A stretch of 64,000 nucleotides of DNA, taken from NCBI GenBank assembly GCA_944391075.1, contig CALXSG010000001.1:6381-70380 (forward strand). The letters are read 5' to 3'. Below the pieces are notes generated by a model that did not search any database, was not told the DNA's origin, and worked only from the letters and a program-made list of their open reading frames with translations. The DNA is from an uncultured Rickettsiales bacterium (GTDB taxonomy: Bacteria > Pseudomonadota > Alphaproteobacteria > Rickettsiales > UBA1997). Shown in pieces: positions 5,128 to 5,433 of this stretch. Position 1 is the first letter of the stretch. Every line of letters starts with the position of its first letter. A program made the translations under genes and the position numbers.

Positions 5128-5433
5128 CTTGTCTTTTATAAAATAATATGCAATTATTGAATTGAATAATTATTATGTGAACCCGTAATTATTTATAGTC
5201 TGAAAACTATACAAGAAGCGGTTAAGAATATTTTAGGAAATATTATGAAATTAAATATTATAATATTTAAAACCGATAAAAATAATAATGTGTTTTGTTA
5301 CTCCTATAACAAGACAACCGGAGGGTGTGGCTATGTCCAGAACTCCGGTTTAAAAACCACTGACTGTCTTCTTGCAGTATTTTCAGCCTCCGGTTCTTAG
5401 GGTTCAGAACCAAAGGTTAAGGATATAATATGA
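5128..5433 (+). repeat. Copy A of a ~306-bp inverted repeat with a GC-rich structured core (candidate ncRNA or mobile-element relic)
   Basis: Aligns without indels to the reverse complement of 56027..56331, with 28 mismatches in 306 by my hand alignment. The core acaagacaaccggagggtgtggctatgtccagaactccggtttaaaaaccactgactgtc...cctccggttcttagggttca is far more GC-rich than its surroundings. Confidence 0.9.

Follow-up and report, generated by a model that had tools for sequence, protein, structure and literature searches.

A covarying multi-pseudoknot RNA in uncultured Rickettsiales whose 5′ and 3′ ends pair through fast-changing matched blocks, a candidate self-pairing leader

We analyzed 64,000 nucleotides (nt) of contig CALXSG010000001.1 (assembly GCA_944391075.1, positions 6,381 to 70,380) from an uncultured Rickettsiales bacterium, a stretch that we call the window, and within it a structured RNA element present in two inverted copies. 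The window is AT rich, with a mean guanine-plus-cytosine (GC) content of ∼25%. Copy A lies in the spacer that separates trxB (4088-5026, − strand) from a P-type ATPase gene (5774-7618, − strand), where flanks of 10 to 17% GC surround a core of 46% GC (5300-5399); this is the GC-enriched island that an initial annotation of the window had pointed to as the likely site of an RNA gene. The repeated unit is ∼310 nt long and lies at 5125-5440 (copy A, + strand) and, as an inverted copy, at 56020-56334 (copy B, − strand), which bears out the two copies proposed at the outset. In the repeat search, the inverted arms 5227-5451/56009-56233 are 92% identical and the arms 5125-5225/56234-56334 are 85% identical, and a 24-mer from the core, AACCGGAGGGTGTGGCTATGTCCA, occurs exactly twice compared to zero expected occurrences. 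The copy B unit proper (56049-56334, − strand) would give an RNA from ∼56294 to 56049, with the promoter region reaching up to 56334; downstream of it are a 57-amino-acid (aa) open reading frame (ORF) resembling a helix-turn-helix (HTH) protein (55737-55910, − strand) and then a tRNA-Ser gene. A search of the whole 64 kb with a family profile (nhmmer) returned only these two copies, which excluded a third, diverged copy upstream of a 2458-aa gene or elsewhere in the window.

We gathered 18 distinct homologues from rumen-type metagenomes, an origin indicated by sample names, and from metagenome-assembled genomes (MAGs) of “uncultured Rickettsiales.” A 51-codon ORF inside the unit served as a search handle only: protein searches led to 15 small clusters, all from metagenomes or MAGs, and the contigs of these clusters provided the loci numbered L001-L015 and L018-L025. 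DNA-pattern scans added L007 and L008, both from “uncultured Rickettsiales bacterium” MAGs, and L017. The window, L007, L008, and L017 are the only ones found via DNA and free of a bias toward called ORFs. One further metagenome match, L016, was rejected as a GC-rich chance match. The homologues collected here confine the family to one clade of uncultured bacteria. For structural analysis, 17 distinct sequences were aligned with MAFFT (alignment A4), a structure-blind method whose register slips at an AGGA tract and around a pseudoknot (both described below) in L013, L017, L018, and L023, so that pairing is understated for these four. The fold model was reached by convergence of RNAalifold and manual reading of the alignment.

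Comparison of the homologues shows, through covariation, that the unit forms a multi-pseudoknot RNA structure conserved among them, with the + strand of copy A as the folded strand, and that the blocks joining its 5′ module to its 3′ end have the behavior of a specificity code. Scored without one of these blocks (KL3, below), the main model has 57 pairs in the 17 aligned sequences, and 94.2% of its cells are paired compared to 88.2% in shuffles. Both sides have changed in 22 pairs, compared to 12.3 ± 2.0 in shuffles (none of 500 reach 22) and 3 to 6 when partners are slid; this is the covariation among homologues for which the initial annotation had called. The covariation score is 0.239, compared to 0.133 for shuffled and 0.06 to 0.08 for slid partners. 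The three end-to-end blocks KL1 to KL3 taken alone (20 pairs) hold 53 both-side-changed cells compared to 20.9, with a covariation score of 0.339 compared to 0.142. Against shuffles, the minimum-energy fold of copy A has a z-score of −4.3 and that of the distant L007 one of −3.6, and the single-sequence folds of these two recover unaided the 5′-3′ pairings, the AT-rich stem, P4, and H1. The strand had been left open before; with 52 G-U cells and 16 A-C cells in the model, the excess of G-U over A-C, together with a predicted promoter, identifies the + strand of copy A as the folded one. A single model cell of 57 is unpaired in copy A, and seven of 57 are unpaired in copy B. The RNA is predicted to span ∼5165-5411 (∼250 nt), with its promoter from 5129. 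All features of copy A described below are on the + strand unless stated otherwise.

The blocks KL1 to KL3 link a 5′ two-hairpin module (5165-5218, with the pairing partners at 5178-5218) to the 3′ end of the RNA (5368-5406). KL1 joins UGAACCC in the loop of hairpin P1 (5178-5184) to GGGUUCA in the loop of hairpin P5 (5400-5406) by 7 bp. It had first been noticed as a long-range closing pair, and it is 94.6% paired, with U-A turned into A-U in three sequences, a compensatory change seen in the L011/L018 clade. KL2 joins UGAAAA in the P2 loop (5201-5206) to UUUUCA (5380-5385) by 6 bp; RNAalifold found it unprompted, and it occurs as five complementary haplotypes (UGAAA/UUUCA, UAACG/CGUUA, UGAAG/CUUCA, UAACA/UGUUA, and UAAAC/GUUUA). 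KL3 joins CAAGAAG (5212-5218) to CUUCUUG in the loop of hairpin H3 (5368-5374) by 7 bp and is hypervariable: all seven pairs have changed on both sides, and nine haplotypes are perfectly complementary. Eight of them match at 7 of 7 positions in copy A (CAAGAAG/CTTCTTG), L001 and L003 (CTAGTAG/CTACTAG), L008 (CATAGAG/CTCTATG), L017 (CAGTAAG/CTTACTG), L013 (CATCTAG/CTAGATG), L011 (TTGCAGA/TCTGCAA), L015 (TACTTGG/CCAAGTA), and L018 (TTAATAG/CTATTAA). The ninth, CATATAG/CTATATG, is found in L025 along with a matched KL2 (TAACG/CGTTA); since this locus was fetched only once the model was fixed, it counts as a passed prediction.

KL3 and three positions of KL2 are hypervariable yet matched. Between close relatives, the 20 specificity columns differ 5 to 10 times more than the remaining unit: 0.437 compared to 0.084 within the window's clade, 0.30 compared to 0.033 between L013 and L017, and 0.70 compared to 0.067 between L011 and L024.

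The 5′ half contains a series of local hairpins. In P1 (5165-5193), AAUAAUUAU (5165-5173) pairs with GUAAUUAUU (5185-5193) around the 13-nt loop that holds UGAACCC; its nine pairs are 97.9% paired, and two of them have changed on both sides, from U-A to C-G in the L011 clade and from A-U to G-C in L013 and L017. P2 (5195-5210) pairs AUAGU (5195-5199) with ACUAU (5206-5210) around the loop UGAAA(A) (5201-5206), with both-side changes in three of its five pairs. A hairpin of variable length follows at 5238-5268, an AT-rich stem of AAAUAUUAUGAAAUU and AAUAUUAUAAUAUUU (inverted repeat I7) that encloses an ATG; both minimum-energy folds, of copy A and of L007, recover it, and the two stems differ in sequence and length. 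P4 (5294-5313), which RNAalifold detected without prior input, pairs UUUGUUA (5294-5300) with UAACAAG (5307-5313) around the loop CUCCUA (5301-5306), and six of its seven pairs have changed on both sides. This loop takes part in a tertiary pairing of its own, as AGGAA (5235-5239), a Shine-Dalgarno-like purine tract 5 nt upstream of the ATG at 5245 (6 nt for its AGGA core), pairs with 5301-5305. The pairing covaries (AGGAA/UUCCU, AAGGA/UCCUU, AAGGC/GCCUU, and GAGA/UCUC), with both-side changes in four of its five pairs despite the slip in alignment register.

The GC-rich core is built around hairpin H1 (5316-5350), in which AACCGGAG (5316-5323) pairs with CUCCGGUU (5343-5350) around a nearly invariant 19-nt loop, GGUGUGGCUAUGUCCAGAA. 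The inner five pairs are 100% paired, with a switch to G-U in copy B, whose arm reads CTCTGG as described earlier, and in L018. Within the loop, 12 unpaired nucleotides are invariant (CUAUGUCCAGAA), and the 36-nt core of the distant L007 equals that of the window, every wobble position included, though the remainder has diverged. GUGG in the H1 loop (5327-5330) forms a pseudoknot with CCAC (5357-5360), a complementarity that had been spotted before; the varying pair is G-C in 13 sequences, A-U in two (L009 and L018, which read ATGG/CCAT), and G-U as an intermediate in one (L007), and is expected to be A-C in the sequence behind protein P0019, as judged from its protein sequence. This gives the pseudoknot moderate comparative support. 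H3 (5363-5378) pairs ACUG (5363-5366) with CAGU (5375-5378) around CUUCUUG (5368-5374) and is 100% paired, with the variants AUUG/CAAU in L015 and GCUG/CAGC in L024 and L021. P5 (5392-5411) closes the RNA with GGUUC (5392-5396) and GAACC (5407-5411) around GGGUUCA (5400-5406); it is 97.6% paired, with two changes to G-U.

An alternative helix, H1′, would pair CCUCCGGUUC (5387-5396) with (G/C)AACCGGAGG (5315-5324), also seen as inverted repeat I13, and would exclude both H1 and P5. At its terminal pair, most sequences have G-C, L024 and L021 have A-U, L007 has G-U, and L011 has A-C. The switch between two mutually exclusive partners of AACCGGAGG, as first proposed, thus draws some support for each partner, that for H1′ being weak to moderate. 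Nearly all of the motifs listed in the initial annotation lie where it placed them (tgaaccc, gggttca, aaccggagg, ctccggtt, cctccggtt, gtgg, ccac, and cggtt), and aaccg, at 5271-5275, is one base off. The pairing proposed between cggtt (5219-5223) and aaccg fails on comparison, as the partner aaccg is kept in two clades only. A hairpin GGTTTTA/TAAAACC in a 15-nt insert was likewise discarded because it is not kept in L011 or L013.

Is this a known RNA? At gathering scores, Rfam 15 finds only two tRNAs in the window; at E < 10, both copies draw scattered 17- to 23-bit matches that are far below gathering scores and differ between the copies. The unit matches no Rfam covariance model, C4 (RF01695) included. 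ARAGORN found no tmRNA, and readings as a tmRNA or a tRNA-like RNA were dropped on the ARAGORN and Rfam results. The earlier view of a structured RNA from no known family thus holds up on both copies. BLASTN of the unit against plasmid and phage collections and four pattern scans of viral contigs gave no match, and the only terminal inverted repeat seen is weak and AT rich; in these searches, the known insertion sequence (IS) or miniature inverted-repeat transposable element (MITE) end that might have explained the conservation at the DNA level did not turn up. The ORF peptide has no match in Pfam, NCBIfam, or PHROGs. HMMER matches to giant repeat proteins among 1.84 billion representatives (E down to 1e-30) were discarded as relatives; they are spurious, because pairwise BLASTP shows the same weak 24-bit match summed over ∼20 identical repeats.

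The ORF (5245-5400, + strand) has 51 codons, encodes MKLNIIIFKTDKNNNVFCYSYNKTTGGCGYVQNSGLKTTDCLLAVFSASGS, and stops at a UAG in the P5 loop. Across copies it has 51 to 72 codons, and none of the 17 aligned copies has a stop in frame 0 over at least 30 codons before the core and at least 27 after it. When the AT-rich N-terminal part is shuffled with its dinucleotides preserved, such an open frame arises with a probability of 0.01 to 0.1 (1 to 10%) per lineage. An AGGA-like tract lies 5 to 12 nt ahead of the ATG in most lineages, and the ORF is kept in frame despite indels of 3, 12, and 15 nt. The peptide is another matter. Variability at codon positions 1, 2, and 3 is 0.30, 0.36, and 0.40 in the N-terminal part and 0.13, 0.19, and 0.14 in the core, so the ORF alignment lacks a third-position excess, and core substitutions land on second positions; from this missing codon-position signature we conclude that selection does not act on the peptide sequence. 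Homologues read the conserved GGGTTCAGAACC in two frames, as SGSQGSEP or SGSRVQNQ, and L018 shifts frame across H3 and then returns. The peptide alignment contains no transmembrane stretch, and AlphaFold2 (AF2) models the peptide with a mean predicted local distance difference test (pLDDT) score of 51, too low for a fold search. With its frame apparently kept open and its peptide unconserved, the ORF appears to be a leader ORF.

Two side observations concern coding in this region. The catalogued “proteins” P0001-P0005 and P0009-P0022 (51 to 117 aa) have variable N and C termini, with extensions from two frames, and are probably gene-calling products on the structured RNA. Within H1 (window 5320-5353), a strong GGAGG, 8 nt, and an ATG at 5333 open a +1-frame mini-ORF, MSRTPV*, which reads MSRTPVLLPFV*, MSRTPVFPIV*, or MSRTPARPIV* in homologues and always ends at a conserved GTTTAA. 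In the insert region, the +1 frame appears a little more like coding sequence than frame 0 does (CCG/CCT synonymous, PIV kept).

Upstream of the RNA, a sigma-70-type promoter is predicted at 5129-5157 (+ strand), with a −35 element TTGTCT (5129-5134), a 17-nt spacer, and a −10 element AATTAT (5152-5157), which would start the transcript at ∼5164, at the foot of P1. A consensus promoter scan did not list this TTGTCT-17-AATTAT site. In the alignment, the promoter position is kept in all homologues, and the L011/L018/L025 clade reads TTGACT-17-TAAACT. At the other end, scans of the window turned up no terminator around either copy, and no U-tract is seen after P5 in the homologues. The next gene starts ∼6 to 70 nt after P5 in several loci and ∼105 to 150 nt after it in L009, L018, L021, and copy B. 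In the window's clade, conservation extends to ATGATAAA, beyond which the sequence tracks local context. The junction to the downstream gene lies at 5412-5437 (+ strand) in copy A, with AAGGA at 5421-5425 and an ATG at 5430 that opens only a 33-codon remnant here; the equivalent ATG of L003 opens a tail-fibre-like gene. The stop of the leader ORF lies 0 to 30 nt from the downstream start codon, or overlaps it, in several lineages.

The downstream genes are diverse. They encode a GT2 glycosyltransferase in L007 and L009, an XRE-type HTH protein in L015, L023, and L006 (the similar 57-aa ORF after copy B has no family match), and, in L011 and L024, a giant TpsA that carries a TPS secretion domain. 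The two TpsA loci adjoin Peptidase_M15_4 and other small genes, most without a family match. Upstream of the unit, the TpsA-linked clade carries a conserved block of small genes (L011 1-5400, L018 1-5600, L024 1-5450, and L025 1-1700), including ∼480-aa and ∼155-aa proteins without a Pfam match and an endolysin-type Peptidase_M15_4 gene, and this block looks like a prophage or tailocin remnant.

How might these parts work together? In the reading that we favor, and to which we would give an even chance, the unit is a previously undescribed self-pairing cis-regulatory leader RNA ahead of varied accessory genes, with a logic like that of phage c4 RNA. We prefer a leader to a free RNA because the promoter position is kept, no terminator was seen at the window copies, and downstream genes start soon after P5. 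The 5′ module would be a built-in antisense “lock” on the leader's 3′ end. In the locked fold, the AGGA/P4 pairing would hide the ribosome-binding site of the leader ORF, and the fold would also close the region beside the downstream ribosome-binding site. Opening of the lock would let ribosomes translate the leader ORF, and it would be their passage that matters, not the peptide. The translating ribosomes would melt H1, H3, and P5 and, in several lineages, stop within 0 to 30 nt of the next start codon, and the downstream gene could then be switched on by translational coupling, by protection from Rho, or by both. The fast-changing matched blocks would be specificity codes that prevent cross-regulation between copies or between competing mobile elements. 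The RNA-gene reading of the initial annotation is thereby revised in part: the structured RNA stands, but the unit is larger than the span first given and is more likely an mRNA 5′ leader than a free-standing gene.

Several points weigh against a leader with a built-in lock. The promoter and both RNA ends are predicted, as is translation of the ORF. Around one-third of copies (copy B, L005, L006, L024, L009, and L023) have mismatched lock blocks, in copy B at KL2 (UCACA/CGUUA) and KL3 (CAUAGAG/CUGAUAG), and a strictly required cis lock is doubtful, since such a lock should not tolerate mismatched copies. Hybrid halves match the halves of other strains; for instance, the 3′ half of copy B corresponds to the 5′ half of L005, and L024 has a 5′ half that corresponds to the 3′ half of L025. 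The mismatched copies may be recombinants, trans partners of other copies, or assembly chimeras across the ∼140-nt identical middle. The antisense target is at the 3′ end of the leader ORF (its last ∼11 codons), unlike the ribosome-binding-site target of c4, and copy A has no intact downstream gene, only the remnant ORF. No helix masking the downstream ribosome-binding site survived comparison; a candidate AACC-AAA-GGTT hairpin was rejected because it is broken in L001, L005, and L008. Support for the alternative helix H1′, weak to moderate, comes from one covarying pair. Finally, most homologues came via called ORFs, which inflates the apparent conservation of the ORF.

It is tempting to go a step further. 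The unit could represent a new class of self-addressed RNA switches, with a 5′ antisense module and its target inside a single leader and with diversifying selection acting on a hypervariable 7+6-nt code. In these rumen endosymbiont-type bacteria, a given copy, or a competing prophage-like element, would control no cargo but its own; this would amount to RNA-based immunity, or orthogonality, outside the enterobacterial phages in which c4 and P4 CI were discovered. We put this forward tentatively, as a possibility that we would not bet on. If the unit did work in this way, exchange between copies would rewire or unlock the expression of cargo such as TpsA proteins resembling contact-dependent toxins, tail fibres, glycosyltransferases, and XRE proteins.

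The strongest competitor to the leader reading is a free-standing structured noncoding RNA, whether ligand or protein binding, catalytic, or trans-acting, in which the ORF would be incidental and the variable blocks would be drifting peripheral helices. The complex, well-supported fold suits such an RNA, and the 12 invariant unpaired nucleotides of the H1 loop (CUAUGUCCAGAA) look like a binding pocket or contact surface. The missing codon-position signature, the lack of a peptide fold from AF2, the P4-loop pairing that accounts for the AGGA tract, and a solo 5′ domain in L015 (see below) all fit as well. However, a free RNA sits poorly with the lack of a terminator or U-tract after P5 and with the downstream start codon ∼6 to 70 nt after P5 in several lineages. 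Nor does it account for a frame 0 that is free of stops in all copies though very AT rich (a shuffle probability of 0.01 to 0.1 each) or for an ATG 5 to 12 nt beyond the AGGA-like tract in most lineages. Neutral drift, moreover, fails to explain a 5- to 10-fold excess of change that is limited to matched blocks in near-identical strains. In its metabolite-riboswitch form this reading meets downstream genes that are too varied, as GT2, XRE-HTH, TpsA, and tail-fibre-like genes follow the unit, and neither a terminator nor a conserved mask over the downstream ribosome-binding site was found. Overall, we regard a free-standing RNA as rather unlikely, though worth keeping in mind.

We find it improbable that the unit is an mRNA of the type I toxin-antitoxin kind (hok/sok or aapA1/IsoA1 type), in which a small toxic peptide would be kept untranslated by the 5′-3′ interaction together with a masked ribosome-binding site, and an antisense RNA would complete the module. 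There are real parallels, including a predicted promoter of its own, an ORF of ∼50 codons, a covarying helix over the Shine-Dalgarno-like tract, 5′-3′ pairing, 5′ hairpins that could be metastable folding intermediates, and several copies in variable, prophage-like surroundings. Yet the peptide has no transmembrane stretch and shows no amino-acid selection, its C-terminal extension is in different frames among homologues, and the ORF runs to the 3′ end, where it abuts or overlaps the next gene with no terminator. Promoter-like hexamers also lie on the − strand opposite the start codon (TTTAAA-18-CATAAT, 5271-5242), but they look like an ordinary AT-rich chance match, as frequent in shuffles.

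The surroundings of the unit hold traces of rearrangement. L006 (885-3393) has trxB, the unit, and then a copy-B-type 3′ half with the HTH gene (compare window 4088-5440 and 55737-56334); this layout looks like the expected product of an exchange between two inverted copies, in which recombination in their identical middle would have flipped the ∼50-kb segment between them. The lock blocks of L006 are mismatched in keeping with such an exchange (UGAAA/CGUUA). L015 has two tandem partial copies (575-800) upstream of its full copy, one comprising the promoter and part of P1 and the other an L009-type solo 5′ domain that ends exactly at the AAGGAUUAU tract. In L021 (1-600), the unit's 5′ half is replaced by pieces of an IS200-type tnpA (..FAPKFRRKVFY.. 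and ..CPDHVHILV..), split by a duplicated GC-rich repeat of ∼110 nt and merged by the gene caller with the leader ORF (P0021, 117 aa). Between trxB and the unit, L006 (2000-2800), L008 (7100-7300), L003, and L005 carry ∼1 kb of GC-rich repeats of the repetitive extragenic palindromic (REP)-like kind (..GTCATTGCGAGG..GCCGTGGCAATCTCG..), which are missing from the window and give spurious ORFs such as ..SLRRPKACGNL...

Could the unit be selected as DNA, as a site of recombination, as an attC-like folded single-strand site, or as a repeat of the MITE or REP type, its arms being kept complementary for a recombinase or transposase and the unit marking junctions of variable DNA? At one and the same trxB locus, strains differ in what follows the unit (ATPase side, HTH gene, or tail-fibre gene), L006 resembles an exchange product of inverted copies and hybrid copies are common, L015 has tandem partial copies and L021 an IS200-type fragment in place of the 5′ half, and covariation alone cannot tell RNA from single-stranded DNA. 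Against this, the unit lacks convincing terminal inverted repeats (the best pair is AT rich and 73% complementary), and we saw no target-site duplication and no transposase, IntI, or other conserved neighbor. Reading of the boundaries gave no GTTRRRY/RYYYAAC pair. The unit occurs just twice in 64 kb, and plasmid, phage, and viral collections gave no match. The 52:16 asymmetry of G-U over A-C, the conserved layout of promoter, ribosome-binding site, and ATG, and the multi-pseudoknot fold are atypical of such sites, and the variable junctions are equally well explained by ordinary homologous recombination at a repeat. A DNA-level element is thus very unlikely in our judgment.

Just as hard to credit is an ordinary small-protein gene (for example, for a Cys-containing secreted peptide or a precursor of a ribosomally synthesized and post-translationally modified peptide [RiPP] or glycocin) conserved via recent ancestry: gene callers annotate the ORF in many assemblies (15 protein clusters), its frame survives indels of 3, 12, and 15 nt, and GT2 genes stand directly behind it in L007 and L009, but second codon positions vary as much as third ones, the core changes at second positions while distant copies agree at every one of its wobble positions, L018 and L015 retain the helices despite altered residues or a shifted frame, the peptide has no family match and a pLDDT of 51, the giant-protein matches are summed weak repeats, and the downstream genes are varied. 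The more specific candidate, a RiPP or glycocin precursor suggested by a Cys-containing peptide beside GT2, was ruled out by the codon-position and frame evidence.

Some neighboring features of the window deserve mention. A gene at 53534-54127 (+ strand) encodes a DUF2460 protein (Pfam E = 1.7e-59); genes of this type occur in gene transfer agents and phage tails, and its presence in the window is in keeping with an alphaproteobacterium. Its neighbors are a family-less 379-aa ORF, YchF, tRNA-Ser(tga) at 55498-55587, and copy B. The 2458-aa ORF (31621-38997, − strand) has no Pfam match at E < 1e-4, and the unit does not occur upstream of it. A strongly hydrophobic 58-aa ORF (5593-5769), kept in L008, lies between copy A and the ATPase gene convergent with it, behind a near-consensus promoter (TTGACA-16-TATTAT, 5538-5565, + strand). 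On the opposite strand, inside P1, both copies have a promoter-like TTCACA-17-AATAAT (5153-5181, − strand, and 56278-56306, + strand); at copy A this site faces trxB and could be its promoter.

New RNA folds of this size, with several pseudoknots and good support, are uncommon, and this one comes from uncultured, very AT-rich bacteria that are beyond genetic study. Matched, fast-changing helices between the two ends are the signature of a selectable RNA-RNA recognition code. Codes of this kind set phage immunity or plasmid incompatibility. If the leader with its built-in lock proves true, it would provide a compact, programmable cis regulator along with a natural set of mutually orthogonal variants. 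It would also offer a handle on how prophage-type cargo (TpsA/CdiA-like proteins, tail fibres, and glycosyltransferases) is silenced in reduced genomes.

Several known systems share parts of this picture. Rickettsia palindromic elements are 100 to 150 bp long, high in copy number, and hairpin forming, and they sit inside genes whose frame they keep open. Our unit is likewise a Rickettsiales repeat that folds into hairpins and keeps an open frame; by description it is set apart by its low copy number, intergenic position, predicted promoter, and multi-pseudoknot fold. In leaders of the mgtA/mgtL, mgtCBR, tnaC, and pyrL type, translation of a leader ORF, not its product, sets downstream expression, often via Rho. 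The unit would resemble them as a long structured 5′ leader with an ORF and candidate alternative helices (H1/H1′, with weak comparative support), but it has no evident terminator hairpin with a U-tract and no evident sensing codons, and its ORF is much longer. To our knowledge, a self-pairing lock with a variable code is missing from mgtA-, tnaC-, and pyrL-type leaders.

The mRNAs of hok/sok and aapA1/IsoA1 combine a 5′-3′ interaction (tac/fbi), a masked Shine-Dalgarno sequence, early 5′ hairpins, an ORF of ∼30 to 50 codons, and coupled covariations. The unit is similar in being multi-copy in variable regions, with a 5′-3′ interaction and a masked Shine-Dalgarno-like tract, but its peptide is neither hydrophobic nor conserved and its ORF abuts a downstream gene. 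No antisense gene turned up; on the − strand, promoter scans of the window copies returned nothing beyond generic AT-rich hexamers that look like promoters, in the same numbers as in shuffles. We know of no hypervariable matched blocks in hok mRNAs. Satellite phage P4 owes its immunity to CI RNA, which is cut from a leader and whose seqB pairs with seqA and seqC, upstream and downstream in the same transcript, the blocks carrying specificity. P4 CI acts by premature transcription termination; in contrast, the unit has no terminator that we could see, an unrelated sequence, and no P4-type gene context.

The closest parallel in logic is c4 of phage P1, a structured 5′ antisense RNA that pairs via two or three short blocks with downstream sites in the same transcript. 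Translation of icd is needed for the downstream gene ant, and covarying blocks set the heteroimmunity of P1 and P7. This c4–icd–ant arrangement was reportedly described by Citron and Schuster in 1990. The c4, icd, and ant genes of phage P1 are described in PMC8201110. Our unit differs in that its targets lie off the ribosome-binding site of the ORF, its AGGA tract being paired to the P4 loop instead, and in being about three times larger, with extra pseudoknots and no match to Rfam C4; its downstream genes, as far as can be told, are not antirepressors. The unit is not a member of the c4, P4 CI, hok, or aapA1 families: Rfam C4 does not match it, its targets are off the ORF's ribosome-binding site, and its peptide is not toxin-like. 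What it shares with c4 (RF01695) is a 5′ RNA that pairs by short covarying blocks with sites in the same transcript (7 bp in KL1, 6 in KL2, and 7 in KL3), and what it shares with c4–icd–ant as a whole is a short ORF between the pairing partners and a phage-like setting.

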